A stretch of DNA of 64,000 nt from Nitrospiria bacterium. GTDB lineage: Bacteria > Nitrospirota > Nitrospiria > Nitrospirales > NS-4. A program made the position numbers and the translations under genes. Under the pieces are notes generated by a model, which was not told where the DNA came from, did not search any database, and saw only the letters and a list, made by a program, of their open reading frames with translations. Positions 52,411 through 57,674 of this stretch are shown here, in pieces. The stretch's first letter is position 1. Each line of letters starts with the position of its first letter. The stretch covers positions 3,867 through 67,866 of the forward strand of contig JBGPTH010000015.1 in NCBI GenBank assembly GCA_041490525.1. Direction: 5' to 3'.

Positions 52411-53508
52411 ATGCGCCGTTGTCTGCTGTCCGGTCTGATCTGGCTCCTGTCGTTGCCGATCGGTATTCCCGCGACCGCCTCGGCCACCTGCACGGTGGAG
52501 CGGGAAGCGGCCGGGGAGCCCGCACTCTTCCTGCGGCATTTCAGTCCGGACTGCGCCCGGGGGGACCGCGCCGCGCACGCGGTTCCGGCGGCGGAGGTCC
52601 TTGCGGCCTTGAAAGCCGGCAAGGGACTCTCCCTCGAGAACGCGGTCCTCACCGGCGACCTTCTGCTCACCCAGCTCCCGTCCGCGCCGGTGGCCTCGCT
52701 CGCGCTGCCGGAACGGATTGCGACGGCGCTCCAACAGGCCAGGGTCACCGAGGCCAGGGTGATTCGCGGGCCTTTCCTGATCCGGAACTCGCTCGTGGAG
52801 GGTACAGTGGACACCCAGATGAAGCCGGATATGGTCGAGCACCGGCTGCTGGGAGACCTGGTGGTGATTCAGGGGCCGGTTGCGTTTACAGGGACGACCT
52901 TCGCCAAGACGGTGGACCTCTCCAGGACGGTCTTCCTGGGGCCGGTGGACAGTGCCGAGGCGATCTTCCTCGGCGATGCTCTGTTCCTCTCCAGTCTGTT
53001 CGACAAGGCGGCCACCTTCGAGAAGACCGCCTTTGCCGCCAACACGCGCTACTATCAGGCTGTCTTTTATGAGCCCGTCACGTTCCTCCGCGCGGGGTTC
53101 AGCGGATTGACGAATTTCCTGTCGGTCACTTTCAAGAAGGAGGCCGGCTTCTCACGGGCCTACTTCAAGATGGGAACCGGCTTTTCGGGCAGCGCCTTTG
53201 AGGGGATTTCCGACTTTTCCGAGAGCGTGTTCGAGCAGGCCGCCTTCTTCTCCCATGCTCACTTCGTCGCGGATACGTACTTCCGGCGCGCGACCTTCCG
53301 CGGCGAGGTCAACTTCTCCGACGCCAACTTCGGTGGCAAGGATGATTTTGCCAAGGTGTTCTACAAGCAGGAGCCCAACTTTACCCGGGCCAAGTTCGCC
53401 GCCCCCCGATCCTCCGCCGGATTCGAGAACCCGGTCTTTCTGGCCCTCGTGGCCGGGGCCCTCGCCGTCTTCCTCATCGCCTTCATCCTGATGTTGCGGA
53501 AAGGCTGA
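52411..53508 (+). CDS. pentapeptide-repeat-like protein with signal peptide and C-terminal TM anchor
   Basis: 365 aa from ATG 52411. It has long runs of A/S-x-F repeats (TFAKTVDLSRTVFLG...ATFRGEVNFSDANFGG) and ends with a hydrophobic helix. Confidence 0.7.
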   Translation: MRRCLLSGLIWLLSLPIGIPATASATCTVEREAAGEPALFLRHFSPDCARGDRAAHAVPAAEVLAALKAGKGLSLENAVLTGDLLLTQLPSAPVASLALPERIATALQQARVTEARVIRGPFLIRNSLVEGTVDTQMKPDMVEHRLLGDLVVIQGPVAFTGTTFAKTVDLSRTVFLGPVDSAEAIFLGDALFLSSLFDKAATFEKTAFAANTRYYQAVFYEPVTFLRAGFSGLTNFLSVTFKKEAGFSRAYFKMGTGFSGSAFEGISDFSESVFEQAAFFSHAHFVADTYFRRATFRGEVNFSDANFGGKDDFAKVFYKQEPNFTRAKFAAPRSSAGFENPVFLALVAGALAVFLIAFILMLRKG

Positions 53509-53511
53509 CCC

Positions 53512-53536
53512 CGGCAATAATATACTTGACTCAGTA
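53512..53536. repeat. left terminal inverted repeat (IR-L)
   Basis: CGGCAATAATATACTTGACTCAGTA. It begins 4 nt after the TGA of the pentapeptide-repeat gene. Confidence 0.75.
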
Positions 53537-53554
53537 AGTCAGACCTGCTATGGT
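53526..53554 (+). promoter_or_regulatory. transposase promoter candidate (TTGACT-17-TATGGT), with the -35 inside IR-L
   Basis: TTGACT at 53526-53531 and TATGGT at 53549-53554. GAGGG SD lies 6 nt before ATG 53585. Confidence 0.4.
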
Positions 53555-53584
53555 GAGGGTAACAACAACCAATGAGGGCTGACG

Positions 53585-54496
53585 ATGCTTCCCCAAACTC
53601 TTCAACAAGCCATTCGGTATTTCGCTGATCCTGAGGTCTGTCTGACCTTCGTAGCCAATCTACGTTGGCCGGAAGGCGCGGTCTGTCCGCGCTGTTCTGC
53701 CAAGAAGCCGCGCTTCATCCAGACACGCCGGATCTGGGAGTGCAAAGGCTGTCGGAAGCAATTCAGCGTGAAGGTCGGGACGATCTTCGAGGACAGCCCA
53801 ATCTCGCTGGATAAGTGGCTCTGTGCGATTTGGTTGATCGTCAATGCGAAGAACGGCGTGTCGTCCTATGAGATTGCCCGTTCCCTTGGCGTCACGCAAA
53901 AGACAGGCTGGTTTATGATGCATCGCATCCGGTTAGCCCTCCAGCGTGGAAGCTTTGCCAAGAAGCTCGCTGGTCCTGTGGAGGCGGACGAGACTTATAT
54001 CGGAGGGAAAGCGCGGTTCATGCATTCGACTAAACGTAGCCGCACACGCGGGATCACGGGGAAGGCTATCGTCATGGGACTGCTGGAGCGAAAAGGTGAG
54101 GTACGGACCAAGGTCATTGAAGCGGCCACTAGCCAAACCCTTCACCGGATGGTGAGAGACAATGTGAAAACGGGTTCCGAACTCTACACCGATGAATGGC
54201 GCGGCTACCGTGGGCTGTCTTGGGATTACGCTCACCGTGTCATCAATCACGCCGAAAAGTACGTTGATGGGATTGTCCACACTCAAGGCATCGAGAACTT
54301 TTGGAGCCTCTTGAAGCGCGGCATCAAGGGAACCTACGTGAGCGTCGAACCGTTCCATTTATTCCGCTACCTGGACGAGCAAGCCTTCCGGTTCAATGCG
54401 CGGAAAGGGAACGATCAGGAGCGATTTATAACCGCCGTTGCTGGCGTGTCTGGAAGGCGTGTCACTTATCAGCGGCTGACTGGTCTTTCAGTATAA
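53585..54496 (+). CDS. IS1595-family (ISXO2-like) DDE transposase
   Basis: 303 aa with an N-terminal zinc ribbon (CPRCSAKKPRF...WECKGCRKQFSVKVGTIFEDS) and ADETYIGG...YTDEW.GY...H..VNH in the catalytic region. Confidence 0.92.
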   Translation: MLPQTLQQAIRYFADPEVCLTFVANLRWPEGAVCPRCSAKKPRFIQTRRIWECKGCRKQFSVKVGTIFEDSPISLDKWLCAIWLIVNAKNGVSSYEIARSLGVTQKTGWFMMHRIRLALQRGSFAKKLAGPVEADETYIGGKARFMHSTKRSRTRGITGKAIVMGLLERKGEVRTKVIEAATSQTLHRMVRDNVKTGSELYTDEWRGYRGLSWDYAHRVINHAEKYVDGIVHTQGIENFWSLLKRGIKGTYVSVEPFHLFRYLDEQAFRFNARKGNDQERFITAVAGVSGRRVTYQRLTGLSV

Positions 54497-54555
54497 ACAG
54501 GCGTATGGTAAGAGACAGCGGCGCGGGAAGCGCAAGGAGGGTCGATGAAAAATTT

Positions 54556-54588
54556 CGCGGGTCAAAGACCCCATTTCTTTGACCCGCG
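54556..54588. repeat. perfect 13-bp-stem hairpin downstream of the transposase
   Basis: CGCGGGTCAAAGA ccccatt TCTTTGACCCGCG. No T-run follows, so it may be a terminator/attenuator or a protein-binding site. Confidence 0.5.
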
Positions 54589-54637
54589 CTCCGGTAGTCC
54601 CTATTTGGCCTGAGTCATGAATCCTCTCAACCTTCGC

Positions 54638-54657
54638 CTTGATCCTGGCAGATCAAG
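54638..54657. promoter_or_regulatory. palindrome CTTGATC-N6-GATCAAG upstream of the cargo operon (operator candidate)
   Basis: Perfect 7-bp arms ending 57 nt upstream of ATG 54714. TATCAT lies at 54671-54676 downstream of it. Confidence 0.4.
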
Positions 54658-54713
54658 GTGCACAGTCGAGCTATCATCAGAACCGACCTAAGCATAGCAT
54701 AGGGAGGCTGAGG

Positions 54714-55517
54714 ATGGCAAGAATTACAGTCCAACTAAAGGGTTCTCTGTCTGATGATTATCATGTTCGCCTATCGGAATTTCTCACCCAGCTTAACGCG
54801 CTCCAACAAGCTTTAGCAAATACCGAAACCGTAATTTCTGGAAGTCCGAAGCCCTCTCTATACTATCGCATCATTGACCTGACCCACTCCAGTCCTTCGA
54901 CTGTAATAGTTGAAGCGAAATCTTACAACCCTGACAACGATTTGAGCACGGATGTCGTGAACAAGTTTTTTGGTGGGCTTCGACAAATCCAAGAAACCGG
55001 GCAAATCTCTGACGATTTCGACAGGCCGACACTCGAAGCCTACAAAGGATTAAGCGCAACGCTTCGCAAGCATATCACTGAGATAAAGTTGAGCAACGGG
55101 GAGAACCAGTTTGAAATTACAAGGCGTCTCGAAGCTCGCATTGATCATATCCTTGGCGATGAGATAATCGTTGAAGGCTCTATAGAGGGAATGCTTGAAG
55201 CGATCAACCTTCACAATAACGCCAACAAATTCCACCTATTCCCATCTGTGGGTCCCCAGAAAGTTGCTTGTCATTTTCCCGATGCATTGCAACCTGAAGC
55301 GATCGCTGCTATCAAGCGGTATGTCTTTGTCAGTGGCCAAGTGAAATATCAAAGACGTGGCTTCTTTCCCCATGAAGTAGAAGTATCCACAATGGAGGTT
55401 TATCCGCAAGAAAGTGACCTGCCGACACTTGGAAGCTTGCGCGGGATCGCGCCCAACGCAACAGGAAAATTAGATTCCGTGGCTTTTATCCGCTCTCTCA
55501 GAAATGCGGCAAGGTAA
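54714..55517 (+). CDS. uncharacterised 267-aa protein upstream of, and coupled to, the PIN gene (candidate long antitoxin/sensor)
   Basis: ATG 54714 is preceded by AGGGAGG. I recognise no motif. Its 3' end overlaps the PIN gene start by 14 nt. Confidence 0.7.
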   Translation: MARITVQLKGSLSDDYHVRLSEFLTQLNALQQALANTETVISGSPKPSLYYRIIDLTHSSPSTVIVEAKSYNPDNDLSTDVVNKFFGGLRQIQETGQISDDFDRPTLEAYKGLSATLRKHITEIKLSNGENQFEITRRLEARIDHILGDEIIVEGSIEGMLEAINLHNNANKFHLFPSVGPQKVACHFPDALQPEAIAAIKRYVFVSGQVKYQRRGFFPHEVEVSTMEVYPQESDLPTLGSLRGIAPNATGKLDSVAFIRSLRNAAR

Positions 55518-55977
55518 GCCCACATACTACTGGGATGCCTGCTTGTTCCTTGCCTGGCTTAAGGATGAGCAACGAGAAGCCGGTGATATGGAAGGCCTAG
55601 CAGAAGTTATTTGGATGGTGGACCGCAACCGCGTAACTATCTCTACCTCAGTGGTTACAAAAGGAGAGATTTGGCAAAGCACTCTGACCGAGCAAGCGAA
55701 AGGGATGTTTACTCAGATGTTGAAACGGCGCAATGTCGTTCTCGTGAATCTTACTGACCCAATCTCTGAGCTGAGCGCAACGATTCGTCAATTTTATGTG
55801 GGCCGGAAAGAACAGATGGATTTACCTGATGCCCAACACCTGGCAACAGCTATTGCTTACAAAACAGATGAGTTCCATACATTTGATGATAAACTCCTAA
55901 ACAAGAGTGGAAATGTCGCGGGCTATAGACTTATTATTTGTAAACCAAAAGGTTTACAGGGAATATTGTTCGTATGA
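55504..55977 (+). CDS. PIN-domain nuclease (VapC-like toxin candidate)
   Basis: 157 aa with acidic residues in PIN-typical positions: YYWDACLF (D11), TKGEIW, LPDAQHLATAI and HTFDD. Confidence 0.8.
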   Translation: MRQGKPTYYWDACLFLAWLKDEQREAGDMEGLAEVIWMVDRNRVTISTSVVTKGEIWQSTLTEQAKGMFTQMLKRRNVVLVNLTDPISELSATIRQFYVGRKEQMDLPDAQHLATAIAYKTDEFHTFDDKLLNKSGNVAGYRLIICKPKGLQGILFV

Positions 55978-56111
55978 AAAAGAGTGGATCACAAACGCCA
56001 TTTGAACGCCTCAAGGAAGCCATGAAGCAAATTCTCTCGACCCCCAAGAAAGATCTCCCCATAAAGCCGTCTGCCAACAAGAAGGCGAAGGCCGCTAAGT
56101 CCTCGTCGTAA
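55974..56111 (+). CDS. possible 45-aa Lys-rich protein coupled to the PIN gene
   Basis: Not in the track (<60 aa). The ATG overlaps the PIN stop (ATGA). Sequence: MKKSGSQTPFERLKEAMKQILSTPKKDLPIKPSANKKAKAAKSSS. Confidence 0.4.
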   Translation: MKKSGSQTPFERLKEAMKQILSTPKKDLPIKPSANKKAKAAKSSS

Positions 56112-56127
56112 TTCCATGCTGCGGCAA

Positions 56128-56165
56128 GTATCCATTTAGATACTGCTTTGTATCTTCATTGATAC
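56128..56165. promoter_or_regulatory. two tandem GTATC-N6-GATAC palindromes (operator candidate)
   Basis: GTATCCATTTAGATAC (56128-56143) and GTATCTTCATTGATAC (56150-56165), 22 bp centre-to-centre, in an AT-rich spacer upstream of ATG 56290. Confidence 0.5.
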
Positions 56166-56289
56166 ATCGAACTGGTTCTTTGATTTGCTTATCCTTTAAA
56201 AACATTTACTTTGTAAGACGACAACGCAAGCACAGACTTTGCTTATTATGTGATGGGCAACATAACAAATTTAACAAGGAGGGTTAACG

Positions 56290-56451
56290 ATGGCAAAGGT
56301 CCCACCGATCCATTCTAAGAAGCCCTTTACACCGCAAGTTTATCACGACGATGACAAATGCACCGAACGCAACAACATCGAGAAAGAAAACATCGTCAGC
56401 GGGACCGGCGGACGCCCCAAGTGCGACCATTGCAAGCGTCTATCTGGTTAA
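56290..56451 (+). CDS. small Cys-containing protein (53 aa)
   Basis: Not in the track (<60 aa). AAGGAGGG SD 7 nt upstream. Sequence: MAKVPPIHSKKPFTPQVYHDDDKCTERNNIEKENIVSGTGGRPKCDHCKRLSG. Confidence 0.5.
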   Translation: MAKVPPIHSKKPFTPQVYHDDDKCTERNNIEKENIVSGTGGRPKCDHCKRLSG

Positions 56452-56780
56452 CTCGCTCCTAGGTCCGTGGTGCGGAAAGTCATTTCCCACCACGGACCAT
56501 GCGGAAAACCATCGTAGAAGTCCCAGACGAGCCTCACCGATAAGACTGGCAGATGGTATGTCATGGCGACTGCCAAGGCCTTGAAGCCCTCGCCGTGGTT
56601 GCCGTGGAACTTGATCGTAGGTTCCGGAAAGGTATGCGTTGCGCCGCCTTGACACGACTCGAATGTCTCAATTCCTTGCGATCTCAAGATAAGGACATAC
56701 TGCCGGATACCGGGGTCTAGCTCCATATCAACTATAGGAGCGAATGATTCTAGTTGGCGTTGTAGATCAAGATTTTTCAT
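56448..56780 (-). CDS. hypothetical protein (110 aa), last cargo gene
   Basis: The ORF start lies 2 nt inside IR-R. It overlaps the 53-aa ORF convergently by 4 nt. No recognisable motif. Confidence 0.5.
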   Translation of the reverse strand: MKNLDLQRQLESFAPIVDMELDPGIRQYVLILRSQGIETFESCQGGATHTFPEPTIKFHGNHGEGFKALAVAMTYHLPVLSVRLVWDFYDGFPHGPWWEMTFRTTDLGAS

Positions 56781-56782
56781 AA

Positions 56783-56807
56783 TACTGAGCCTAGTATATT
56801 ACTGCCG
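56783..56807. repeat. right terminal inverted repeat (IR-R)
   Basis: The reverse complement is CGGCAGTAATATACTAGGCTCAGTA, matching IR-L at 22/25 positions. Confidence 0.75.
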
Positions 56808-56879
56808 CTGACCCCCGCTCCTACCATATGTAGAAGAAAATCTTGCCTTTATCCACCAAATGTGGTAGGAACTACGCCC

Positions 56880-57674
56880 ATGACCGATCATCCGGGGACG
56901 GAAGTGGATACCCTCAGGGACGCCTACCAGATCCGATTGGACCGGTTCGAGGGCCCGCTTGACCTCCTCCTGCATCTGATCAAGGAGGAGAAGATTAACA
57001 TCTACGACATTCCGATCGCGTTGATCACCAAGCAGTATCTCGACTACATCAGCCTCATGAAATCGTTGAATTTGGAGGTGGCGGGAGAATTTCTGGTGAT
57101 GGCGGCCACCCTTATCCATATCAAATCCCGGATGCTCTTGCCCCCCGAGCCCGAGGAGGAAGAGGAGGAGGGGGAGGATCCGCGCGCCGAGCTGGTCCGG
57201 CAGCTCCTGCTGTACAGACAATTCAAGGAAGCGGCCGGCGAGCTGGAAGAGCGGGAGCGGCTGTGGCGGGAGGTGTATGCCCGCGCGCCGCTCATCGAGG
57301 AGGCCACCGATGAGGCGGAGGAGGGCCCACTGGACCTCACGCTCTCCGAGCTGGTGGGTGCGTTTCAGGACCTCCTTCAGCGCGTCCCCTCGAAGGCCCT
57401 GATTGAACTGACGGCCGAATTTCTGACGGTCAAAGACCGGATGAATTACATCCTGGAAAAGTTGGAGGAGGCGCCGGTCGTCTCCTTTGAGACGCTCTTT
57501 CTTCCCGAGGAGGGGCGTCTGGTGTTGATCGTGACATTCCTGGGGCTGCTGGAACTGATCCGGATCAAGTTGGTCCGGGCGTTTCAGCCGGAGCCGTTCG
57601 GGTCCATCCTCCTGTCGCGGGCGTTCCTGGCGGTGACGTCGAAGGAGGGCGATTCGGGGGAGAATGACCAATGA
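56880..57674 (+). CDS. scpA: segregation and condensation protein A
   Basis: About 264 aa with FEGPLDLLLHLIKEEKINIYDIPIALITKQYL...AGEFLVMAATLIHIKSRMLLP. ATG 56880 is preferred over GTG 56862. Confidence 0.9.
   Translation: MTDHPGTEVDTLRDAYQIRLDRFEGPLDLLLHLIKEEKINIYDIPIALITKQYLDYISLMKSLNLEVAGEFLVMAATLIHIKSRMLLPPEPEEEEEEGEDPRAELVRQLLLYRQFKEAAGELEERERLWREVYARAPLIEEATDEAEEGPLDLTLSELVGAFQDLLQRVPSKALIELTAEFLTVKDRMNYILEKLEEAPVVSFETLFLPEEGRLVLIVTFLGLLELIRIKLVRAFQPEPFGSILLSRAFLAVTSKEGDSGENDQ

Follow-up and report, generated by a model that had tools for sequence, protein, structure and literature searches.

In the window, by which we mean the whole 64-kb stretch of Nitrospirales DNA that was analyzed, a gene for a pentapeptide-repeat membrane protein is separated from scpA by a 3,294-bp segment (positions 53513-56806) that is bounded by inverted repeats (IRs) and flanked by a short direct repeat (cf. 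Table 1). The segment encodes an IS1595-family transposase and, between this gene and the right inverted repeat (IR-R), five further ORFs, four of which have conserved families of homologues. An earlier note on this DNA had described the region as a cargo-carrying IS1595 transposon whose transposase was accompanied by five unrelated ORFs. All five are present, but they are not unrelated, as they form two modules (A and B) and one gene that we assign to the backbone of the element. The claim that the interior is richer in AT than its flanks agreed with a GC content of 49.6%, compared with 64.4 ± 1.9% (minimum 58.5%) in equal-size segments elsewhere.

Table 1. Positions of the genes, repeats and predicted signals at the insertion locus
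Feature	Position	Strand	Basis
Pentapeptide-repeat membrane protein gene, 365 aa	52411-53508	+	Pfam Pentapeptide_3, 1e-17
Left target-site duplication copy, 9 bp, GCTGACCCC	53504-53512		Identical to 56807-56815
IR-L, GGCAATAATATACTTGACTCAGTA	53513-53536	+	24/24 nt identical to IR-L of L099 and L242
Promoter-like site for transposase	53526-53554	+	Consensus scan, 9/12 matches
IS1595-family transposase, 303 aa, intact	53585-54496	+	PF12762 1e-41, PF12760 1e-13, NF033547 3e-58
Hairpin, 13-bp stem, in transposase-cargo gap	54556-54588		Terminator-like scan
Module A gene 1, 267 aa, family uncharacterised	54714-55517	+	40 homologues
Module A gene 2, 157-aa nuclease with PIN domain	55504-55977	+	PF01850 1.4e-5
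45-aa basic ORF	55974-56111	+	77% identical to 43-aa ORF of L242
Module B gene 1, 53-aa Cys/His-rich protein	56290-56451	+	Strong Shine-Dalgarno
Module B gene 2, 110-aa protein, convergent with 53-aa gene	56448-56780	-	703 homologues
IR-R, reverse complement GGCAGTAATATACTAGGCTCAGTA	56783-56806	-	21/24 match to IR-L
Right target-site duplication copy, 9 bp, GCTGACCCC	56807-56815		Identical to 53504-53512
scpA	56880-57674	+	PF02616 7e-39

Ends of the element and its insertion site

The sequences at 53512-53536 and 56783-56807, which the earlier note had proposed as a 25-nt pair with 22 matches, ranked first among the inverted repeats of this region, with a length of 25 nt and a complementarity of 88%, and with up to three mismatches allowed the IR sequence occurred at only two sites in the 64 kb, while none was expected from 100 shuffles. 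Since the IRs of a sister element, L099, and of 38 further relatives have GG/CC tips, the ends were set at 53513 and 56806, which gives IRs of 24 nt and a target-site duplication of 9 bp; the pair itself was thus correct, but each of its proposed ends lay one base too far out. The two IRs differ at positions 5, 15, and 17, the latter two being located within the conserved motif TTGACT, and three of the 24 positions in IR-R deviate from the clade consensus. The direct repeat, previously estimated at 7-8 bp, is also present, though the identical stretch comprises 9 nt, and only this length is in register with the GG/CC termini, as 8- and 10-nt registers fail. Its core CTGACCC (53505-53511 and 56808-56814) is by itself a common heptamer, with 20 occurrences in the window versus 13 expected. 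In the IS1595 family, duplications are usually 8 bp long, while the related Merlin elements produce duplications of 8 or 9 bp (PMC8101967).

As claimed before, the left copy of the duplication includes the TGA stop codon (53506-53508) of the pentapeptide gene directly ahead, and scpA starts 72 nt past position 56807; its distance from the right copy is 64 nt. In two related Nitrospirales (L093 and L019), an orthologue of the pentapeptide protein (73-76% amino acid identity, ending at the same terminal residue) is followed by 68-69 nt and then by scpA, with no element in between, and the spacer of the window, after subtraction of the element and with one repeat copy retained, equals that of the two relatives. 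The proposed search for an empty site yielded these uninterrupted junctions, but not the exact empty-site sequence, which was absent from both large collections searched. According to the earlier note, cargo genes found here in relatives but lacking IRs and a duplication would have spoken against transposition. Neither L093 nor L019 has any cargo here, and, as with the other refuting conditions set out in the note, the outcome favors its interpretation. The IRs, the duplication and the uninterrupted junctions bear out the proposed cargo-carrying transposon, and we conclude that the segment is very probably a transporter IS (tIS) of the IS1595 family that entered the 68-nt pentapeptide-scpA spacer of a Nitrospirales chromosome. 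By analogy with the family, the transposase would bind both 24-nt IRs, cut at their GG tips and join the cut ends to a staggered target cut, the repair of which would create the 9-bp duplication, with the whole IR-to-IR segment moving as one unit.

One could also suppose that a simple IS1595 element lies beside an older small island, the distal repeat being no functional end and the cargo remaining outside the mobile unit, as the transposase (55% GC) differs in composition from the cargo (45-52% GC) and the right-end genes of the window element are unlike those of L099. However, this arrangement is contradicted by the junctions in L093 and L019, which lack both the IS and the island and leave a spacer that fits the loss of the whole 3.3 kb, by the 9-bp duplication that encloses the entire unit, and by L099 and another relative, L242, in which the order of transposase, cargo and 45-aa ORF is repeated within the same IRs elsewhere; we therefore consider it extremely improbable.

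Because the duplication regenerates the TGA stop, the pentapeptide protein is unaltered, and the spacer motif CTTGCCTT...TGGTA, common to the window, L093, and L019, is still found downstream of the insertion, on the scpA-proximal side; the effect of the insertion on the host was thus probably near-neutral. The earlier note had also called the insertion recent, which agrees with the perfect duplication and the unameliorated GC content, but not with its fixation in all public contigs, so that it is recent only in a relative sense. An identical transposase was found in eight public contigs, always at this one site, where the element is also present in all public contigs with identical flanking proteins; the contigs with the element represent eight or more samples. 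Neither the window nor public data contained a further copy of the element in this exact form, and this single occupied site, like the missing exact empty site, weighs against the tIS reading.

The same observations, together with IR-R, do not bear out the continuing mobility that the earlier note had considered probable, and they fit an element that arrived by transposition and is now a fixed, immobile relic, with ends or expression that no longer support movement and with a cargo kept through a benefit to the host or the resistance of the toxin pair to loss. The deviations of IR-R from the clade consensus, two of them in TTGACT and as such also a point against the tIS reading, and the next-nearest transposase, which is only 79% identical, point in this direction. 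On the other hand, the transposase is full length and has every invariant residue, the duplication is still perfect, the GC content is unameliorated, and relatives such as L137, L173, L153, and L179 have comparable IR variation yet perfect duplications. We regard the loss of mobility as quite conceivable, though not as the favored view.

The transposase and the relatives of the element

The assignment of the transposase to the IS1595 type was confirmed by the match to DDE_Tnp_IS1595 (PF12762), which covers positions 1-153 of the 153 in the model, and by a zinc ribbon (PF12760) at residues 17-59. In an alignment of 17 sequences, the residues D135, D203, E237, K244, C34, C37, and C53 are invariant in the clade and all present in the window protein, E237 lying within GIENFW and K244 at +7. 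Family members encode a single transposase that combines a zinc finger with a DDE_Tnp_IS1595 domain, the zinc finger (Zn_Tnp_IS1595) being missing only in the IS1016 group (PMC8101967). The suggested ISfinder comparison, run with the DDE domains of 21 references (S2 File of PMC8101967), identified ISNwi1 as the best match by a small margin (39% identity over the DDE domain, 109 bits), followed by ISPepr2 (92 bits), ISAlba2 of the ISSod11 group (91 bits), the IS1016 group (84-87 bits), and ISSpo8 (82 bits). At the column of E237, the references have E in ISNwi1 and IS1016, H in ISSod11, and N in IS1595, ISPna2, and ISH4. The ISNwi1 subgroup is characterized by a DDE-K catalytic signature whose third residue is E and by the IR consensus ggnnatTAT, to which the start of the window IR, GGCAATAAT, fits at 8 of 9 positions.

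As had been pointed out, the predicted -35 box of the transposase promoter (TTGACT, 53526) lies inside IR-L; it is followed by a 17-nt spacer and a TG-extended -10 box (TATGGT), and its hexamer belongs to the clade-wide conserved IR. This site probably drives the transposase. The hairpin behind the gene is followed by a T-run on the minus strand only.

The IR tip GGCAATAATATACTTGACT (the first 19 nt of IR-L) was detected in more than 120 metagenome contigs and in 7 viral contigs, with a transposase nearby in 86 of 127 contigs. Thirty-nine complete relatives of 1.07-4.4 kb were recovered, 36 of which exceed 1.7 kb, and perfect 8-bp duplications flank 32 of them, so that both the recurrence of the IR/duplication pattern and the copies with other cargo, for which the note had suggested a search, were found. 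None of the 39 has a duplication of 9 bp, and the length seen in the window thus speaks against the tIS reading. The sister element L099, in a different genomic context and with its own 8-bp duplication (TTCGTTGA), carries transposase, 267-aa, PIN and 43-aa genes between identical IRs (71% DNA identity, gene order alike). This supports the claim that the PIN module spreads with the transposase. In L242, the transposase is 73% identical, whereas the 267-aa and PIN-type pair shows just 21-25% identity, as if the cassette had been replaced. The intervening cargo being so divergent, the 77% identity of the 45-aa ORF to its counterpart in L242, together with the presence of its motif (PF..F..L..VPKKE and a K-rich tail) in 40 of 43 elements, marks it, judged by this conservation, as a backbone gene of the IS clade and not as cargo. 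It had no Pfam match, and we know of no description of the near-universal second small basic ORF of the clade. The backbone would accordingly consist of the IRs, the transposase and the 45-aa basic protein, with modules A and B as passengers.

IS relatives with passenger genes are termed transporter IS, and ISNha5 is given as an IS1595 example in PMC11891212, citing Siguier et al. 2009. The window element resembles tIS of the ISNwi1 group in (i) a single transposase in which DDE_Tnp_IS1595 is preceded by an N-terminal zinc ribbon, the third catalytic residue being E with K at +7, (ii) IRs starting with GG and a duplication of the 8-bp class, and (iii) passengers located past the transposase and ahead of the distal IR. 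The sizes of ISNwi1 and its passenger-carrying forms also agree with the 1.07-1.26 kb of simple and the 1.76-4.4 kb of loaded elements in the clade. The differences are the modest identity to ISNwi1, with ISSod11 and IS1016 references close behind, the 9-bp duplication, and the small basic ORF. Neither the 267-aa and PIN pair nor the 53-aa and 110-aa pair is among the passengers named in the IS1595 literature cited here.

The cargo of the relatives includes a restriction-modification pair (N6_N4 methylase and BglII-like endonuclease), AbiU/AIPR (match to AbiU 3e-164), an AbiLi-like ATPase with DUF3226 (AbiLi 7e-37), DUF3800, NYN, and DUF433 + PIN-like pairs; AbiU, AbiLi, and PDC-M38A were the sibling cargo that matched PADLOC-DB v2. 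Tn7-like elements are likewise transposons that carry mainly defence systems as cargo, and share a conserved backbone with a variable slot for restriction-modification, Abi and toxin-antitoxin genes, whereas the elements of this clade are far smaller (2-4 kb), usually carry one module, and have a single DDE transposase without targeting proteins and attachment site. While passenger-bearing IS elements were already known, this lineage emerges as a widely distributed carrier of small modules for defence and toxins.

Cargo modules A and B

In module A, the PIN gene overlaps the 267-aa gene by 14 nt. The PIN match is modest (26.2 bits versus a gathering cut-off of 23.6 for PF01850), but D11 and E55 are invariant among the homologues aligned, and the acidic positions in PDAxH and HTFDD are kept in five full-length homologues, the exception being the truncated copy in L100. 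The 267-aa protein had no match in Pfam, NCBIfam, PADLOC or PHROG, and neither the Pfam/NCBIfam searches nor its AlphaFold2 model revealed an RHH, AbrB, Phd or HTH domain. The model (pLDDT 86) comprises an N-terminal alpha/beta domain and an OB-fold-like domain, for which comparison with the PDB gave partial OB-fold matches only (E about 5e-3), and the C-terminal tail is conserved in the family. A PIN gene lies directly downstream of the 267-aa homologue in all eight contexts examined (truncated in L100), and the pair adjoins an IS1595 transposase, or what remains of one, in seven of eight independent loci at 25-78% identity.

Such linkage over deep divergence would be accounted for if the two proteins were accessory parts of transposition, with a role in selecting targets, processing the ends or regulating the process, and not passengers; the nucleic-acid-binding character of an OB-fold-like domain and the roughly parallel divergence of cargo and transposase in L099 and L231 would also suit such a role. 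Nevertheless, 37 of the 39 complete relatives lack the pair and still have duplications, the pair in L242 has diverged far more than its transposase, and the pair occurs without transposase in L100 and in L233, where it is part of an island of toxin-antitoxin and restriction genes, which makes an accessory function improbable.

Module A is most likely a toxin/regulator pair acting in addiction or abortive infection, a reading drawn from the domains, the overlap of the two genes and their surroundings; the modest PIN score, the absence of a known antitoxin DNA-binding domain from the 267-aa protein and the negative PADLOC search of both proteins speak against it. The PIN protein would be an RNase toxin restrained by its translationally coupled 267-aa partner with its OB-fold-like domain and conserved tail. 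Like VapBC, the two genes overlap and are co-directional, with a PIN gene in second place and its acidic residues conserved, and the pair resides on a mobile element as well as within toxin-antitoxin clusters. Unlike VapBC, the upstream protein has 267 aa instead of the about 70-90 aa of an antitoxin and combines alpha/beta and OB-like domains in place of RHH, AbrB, Phd or HTH; the PIN protein scored 16.7 bits against the VapC family model TIGR00028 (cut-off 73.6). The DUF433 + PIN-like (DUF5615/PIN_10) pairs of L130, L166, and L179 occupy the same post-transposase position in the same carrier clade and have a similar layout (230-300 aa upstream, about 150 aa PIN-like downstream), but no sequence relationship was detected, and neither DUF433 nor HTH models matched the 267-aa protein.

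More specifically, the 267-aa protein might sense phage nucleic acid or protein and free the PIN nuclease in an anti-phage abortive infection response, so that the module would not be one of plain addiction. The defence genes in sibling elements, the surroundings of the module, with restriction and toxin genes in L233 and adjacent phage genes in L102, and a partner about threefold larger than ordinary VapB antitoxins and equipped with an OB-like domain are in line with this function. However, neither protein was matched by PADLOC or PHROG models (for the five window proteins, PADLOC-DB v2 gave no match at E≤1e-3, the best being JetA at 0.025 for the PIN protein), and the neighbourhood does not tell defence from addiction, so that we consider a dedicated anti-phage role possible but rather unlikely.

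For the 110-aa protein of module B, no Pfam match was found, nor a significant PDB fold match for its AlphaFold2 model (pLDDT 90.7). Homologues of the convergent 53-aa protein form 289 representative clusters at E≤1e-3, and in L236-L240 a homologous 52-aa gene is paired with a 104-aa homologue.

Ends and insertion site of the element

An earlier note on this DNA had placed an intact, cargo-carrying IS1595-family transposon between a pentapeptide-repeat gene and scpA; save for small corrections, the element is real and was correctly interpreted. The inverted repeats it had claimed (53512-53536 and 56783-56807; 25 nt, 88% identity) were recovered as the top inverted repeat of the region, and the IR-L sequence, with up to three mismatches allowed, occurred at two positions only in the 64 kb and gave 0 matches in 100 shuffles. 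CTGACCC was also found at both ends as described; taken alone, this 7-mer is unremarkable (20 copies in the window against 13 expected), and its evidential value comes from its placement flush against both inverted repeats and not from rarity. A sister element, L099, which was reached via the 267-aa cargo protein, has perfect inverted repeats of 23-24 nt, the same as the window IR-L if this is counted from 53513, and an 8-bp duplication, TTCGTTGA. Since its GG/CC tips are also present in 38 further complete relatives among the matches listed, the window element spans 3,294 bp (cf. the table of features). Its inverted repeats then match at 21 of 24 positions with GG/CC tips, and its duplication is the 9-mer GCTGACCCC, the 8- and 10-nt registers failing. 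Thus, the perfect repeat stood up to the analysis, whereas the exact ends and the proposed length of 7-8 bp did not: a 7-bp duplication with C/G tips is ruled out by the tips of L099 and the 38 relatives, and an 8-bp one by the extra base needed at one junction. Perfect 8-bp duplications were found in 32 of the 39 complete relatives among the matches listed and 9-bp ones in none, so the window copy deviates slightly from the norm. For Merlin, a related group of eukaryotic elements, duplications of 8 or 9 bp are on record (PMC8101967). In many clade members the duplication is AT-rich and framed by C...G (CTATTTTG, CAAATTAG, CTCGTAAG), a hint that certain targets are preferred, and the GC-rich target of the window falls outside this pattern. 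At locus L136, two different cargo-carrying clade elements (2,778 and 2,920 bp) follow each other head to tail with just one CTAATTTG, common to both, between them, and this octamer also flanks one end of L222.

Coordinates of the features (window positions unless a locus handle is given)
Feature	Position	Remark
Left duplication	53504-53512	9 bp
Element	53513-56806	
IR-L	53513-53536	
Transposase gene	53585-54496	
267-aa gene	54714-55517	module A
PIN gene	55504-55977	module A
45-aa ORF	55974-56111	small basic ORF
53-aa gene	56290-56451	module B
110-aa gene	56448-56780	module B
IR-R	56783-56806	
Right duplication	56807-56815	9 bp
Spacer before scpA	56816-56879; L093:5915-5982; L019:4731-4799	
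Sister element	L099:2362-5273	
DNA shared with L242	53513-54720 and 55974-56084	within L242:637-3733
Divergent transposase segment	L014:42-261	window 54064-54283
Stranded module A pair	L233:4774-6309	putative derivative
Module B-like pair	L240:870-1367	
Head-to-tail elements	L136:123-5828	
Other small basic ORF copies	L216:2120-2368; other loci L103-L229	

The flanks agree with the earlier description: the TGA of the pentapeptide ORF lies inside the left repeat, scpA starts 72 nt past the right end as first drawn, and the interior is AT-richer (GC 49.6%, compared with 64.4 +/- 1.9% and a lowest value of 58.5% in equal-size windows elsewhere). The pentapeptide protein is intact because the duplication restores its stop codon. 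A literal search for the empty-site pattern AARGGNTGACCCCCGCTCCTAC gave 0 matches in metagenome_contigs and 0 in genome_contigs, look-ups of identical pentapeptide and ScpA proteins for insertion-free strains returned only element-carrying contigs, and a 387-aa version of the ORF had no record in the identical-protein look-up. All contigs encoding an identical transposase, pentapeptide protein or ScpA carry the element at the same site. In the nearest two genomes of the species-level collection, the Nitrospirales MAGs L093 and L019 (ScpA 66%, pentapeptide protein 73-76% identical), the pentapeptide gene is followed after 68 nt (L093) or 69 nt (L019) by scpA, and the window, once the element and one of the two repeats are taken out, has a spacer of 68 nt (predicted empty junction, GGAAAGGCTGACCCCCGCTCCTACC). 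This reconstructed junction is colinear with both MAGs and shares with them a CTTGCCTT...TGGTA motif downstream of the insertion. As their junctions are uninterrupted, both the IS and the cargo are absent in these relatives, which is the opposite of what would have spoken against the transposon, namely relatives with the cargo at this site but without inverted repeats or duplication. The conserved spacer proximal to scpA is untouched by the insertion, and its motif CTTGCCTT...AAAT.TGGTA is kept in all three sequences. The spacers of L093 and L019 read TTGCCT-17-TATATT, likely the scpA promoter judging from the sequence, while the -10 of the window is weaker (TAGGAA). An Rfam search over 53300-57000 gave no match. 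Since both ends, a perfect duplication and uninterrupted sites in orthologous positions are all available, the locus can serve as a textbook case of a transporter IS, and of a 3-kb foreign block slipping between two housekeeping genes with neither damaged.

Transposase affiliation, age and mobility

The transposase is of the IS1595 type, as had been claimed, with a full-length IS1595 DDE domain (1e-41), a zinc ribbon (1e-13) and a match to NCBIfam NF033547 (3e-58). The promoter proposed for it was also recovered as a consensus-like predicted sigma-70 site with its -35 (TTGACT) within IR-L. By analogy with the family, the transposase would bind the inverted repeats, cut at the GG tips and insert the element into a staggered target cut, and the position of the -35 would let it repress its own promoter. 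Of the 21 ISfinder references whose DDE domains the transposase was compared with (S2 File of PMC8101967), ISNwi1 scored highest (39% identity, 109 bits), followed by ISPepr2 of the ISNwi1 group (92 bits), ISAlba2 of the ISSod11 group (91 bits), the IS1016 group (84-87 bits) and ISSpo8, again of the ISNwi1 group (82 bits); the ISNha5, IS1595 and ISPna2 groups reached at most 54, 47 and 38 bits, respectively. The catalytic E237 with K244 resembles both ISNwi1 and IS1016, and membership of the latter group is excluded by the zinc ribbon. The element thus appears to be ISNwi1-like on a deep branch, though this placement is not secure. The plasmid collection yielded distant transposases only (at most 41.5% identical, with generic annotation). 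Such IS, when they carry passenger genes, are already described as transporter IS (PMC11891212, citing Siguier et al. 2009), and the element adds a member to them.

The anatomy and the insertion are plain, and the same architecture recurs elsewhere with independent duplications. The earlier note had further called the element recent and probably still mobile. A relatively recent arrival is favored by the perfect duplication, a GC content 15 points under that of the host and the sister species without the element, whereas three observations count against demonstrated mobility: (i) all samples show a single copy, always at this site, (ii) identity to the closest other transposase is 79% and (iii) IR-R departs from the consensus at three positions. 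Contig L014 (sample 3300052991) is identical to the window except in a 220-bp segment of the transposase gene, where it has 26 differences, mostly synonymous and at third positions; in L010 of that sample, this segment agrees with the window. Several same-site contigs break within the transposase gene. The differences point to a second, related IS copy that either donated sequence by gene conversion or was mis-assembled with this one, which hints that the community contains related copies. At positions 53968, 53977 and 53980, the window itself shows synonymous third-codon differences from all public same-site contigs spanning them (n=8).

Cargo modules and the small basic ORF

Five ORFs are present inside the element as described, but not all of them are cargo, the 45-aa ORF being part of the clade backbone. 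Locus L242 encodes a transposase 73% identical to that of the window and has an IR-L matching at 24/24 positions, and its DNA similarity to the window is confined to two segments (69-79% identity). Between them lies a 265-aa + PIN pair, whose proteins are 25% and 21% identical to those of the window, and the cargo therefore looks like a replaced cassette. At L241 (transposase 79%), a different 300-aa cargo is followed by a 45-aa-like segment. An iterated profile detected the small basic ORF in 40 of 43 clade elements among the matches listed, simple 1.1-kb IS included. It carries the motif PF..F..L..VP(K/H)..E and then a lysine-rich tail, and in clade elements it is mostly convergent with the transposase, on the opposite strand, abutting the transposase stop codon. 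Pfam gave no credible match for these small ORFs, which may represent an undescribed second backbone gene.

Module A consists of two genes with a 14-nt overlap. With 40 matches, the family of the 267-aa protein is small; it has no Pfam match, nothing below E 0.27 was obtained in a PDB sequence-profile search, and PADLOC, PHROGs and NCBIfam returned nothing significant for the cargo proteins. The AlphaFold2 model of the 267-aa protein (pLDDT 86) combines an alpha/beta domain with an OB-like barrel, and the conserved C-terminal tail (residues about 235-267) is modeled at lower confidence; with this model, Foldseek against PDB found partial OB-fold matches only (about 95 residues, E about 5e-3). 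The acidic residues of PIN are kept, and the PIN gene lies 3' of the 267-aa gene in 8/8 independent contexts, truncated at L100. The PIN module had been said to travel with the transposase, and indeed an IS1595 transposase, its pseudogene, or an inverted repeat plus a transposase remnant accompanies it in 7/8 contexts, in L099 between the same inverted repeats; the exception is L100, where module A sits between purine-biosynthesis genes. At L233, one of the seven, a 268-aa + PIN pair within a restriction and toxin-antitoxin gene cluster is directly preceded by an IR-L-like end and a transposase remnant of 53 C-terminal residues; this resembles an element of the same type that was stranded when its transposase was deleted. 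From content and neighborhood, module A most likely consists of a PIN toxin held by its large partner, and would either stabilize the element through addiction or act in abortive infection; plain addiction and defense are about equally probable. Since 37 of the 39 complete relatives among the matches listed move without module A, it is unlikely to take part in transposition directly.

The two genes of module B are convergent and belong to families without annotation (289 representative clusters for the 53-aa and 703 matches for the 110-aa protein). A related 52-aa + 104-aa pair was found at loci L236-L240 beside an IS1-like 296-aa transposase, so module B is an accessory module in its own right; the pair at L240 is about 65-70% identical to that of the window, and these contigs are Rhizomicrobium-like. 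Foldseek against PDB gave no meaningful fold match for the 110-aa model (pLDDT 90.7).

The wider clade and its passengers

The pattern of inverted repeats and duplications, which was to be sought in other copies, recurs widely and with independent duplications. The 19-nt tip GGCAATAATATACTTGACT was present in at least 120 metagenome contigs and 7 viral contigs, and among the matches listed 86 of 127 tip loci contain an IS1595 transposase 45-66% identical to that of the window; the tip is therefore far better conserved than the protein. Among the same matches, complete pairs delimit elements of 1,068-4,436 bp, and only 3 of the 39 complete copies are simple IS (1.07-1.26 kb), the other 36 measuring 1.76-4.4 kb. 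The tip thus marks a very large, mostly soil-borne IS1595 clade in which cargo carriage is the rule. Where cargo could be recognized, it consisted mostly of genes for restriction, abortive infection or toxins. L106 carries an N6_N4 methylase and a BglII-like endonuclease, L215 AIPR/AbiU (3e-164) and L185 an AbiLi-like ATPase with DUF3226; in other relatives, DUF3800, NYN and HNH proteins, an ECF sigma factor, and DUF433 + PIN-like pairs (n=3) were identified. Many further cargo proteins are without any match, and a literature search found no paper connecting IS1595 to defense cargo.

We tentatively consider, as a possibility rather than the expected outcome, that the ISNwi1-like clade is an undescribed modular cassette shuttle with a conserved backbone and an exchangeable slot holding mostly single defense or toxin modules. 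The backbone would consist of GG-tipped inverted repeats with a built-in -35, the transposase and the near-universal small basic protein, and, from the sequences compared, the slot appears to change its content through recombination between segments of the backbone. The OB-like 267-aa protein and PIN would then form a new two-gene immune or addiction system with this transposon lineage as its main vehicle. If the cargo pattern of the clade holds, such mini-transposons would carry single immune modules from one bacterium to another cheaply and with high turnover, and would be a convenient bait for new ones, first of all the uncharacterized 267-aa + PIN pair. To IS specialists, the locus taken singly is nothing unusual; the larger value lies in the clade-level picture of slot, passengers, small ORF and OB-like + PIN pair. 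Four of the 7 viral contigs with the tip (L223, L225, L226 and L228; IMG/VR) have an IS1595 transposase nearby, and clade elements may ride on phages or prophages.
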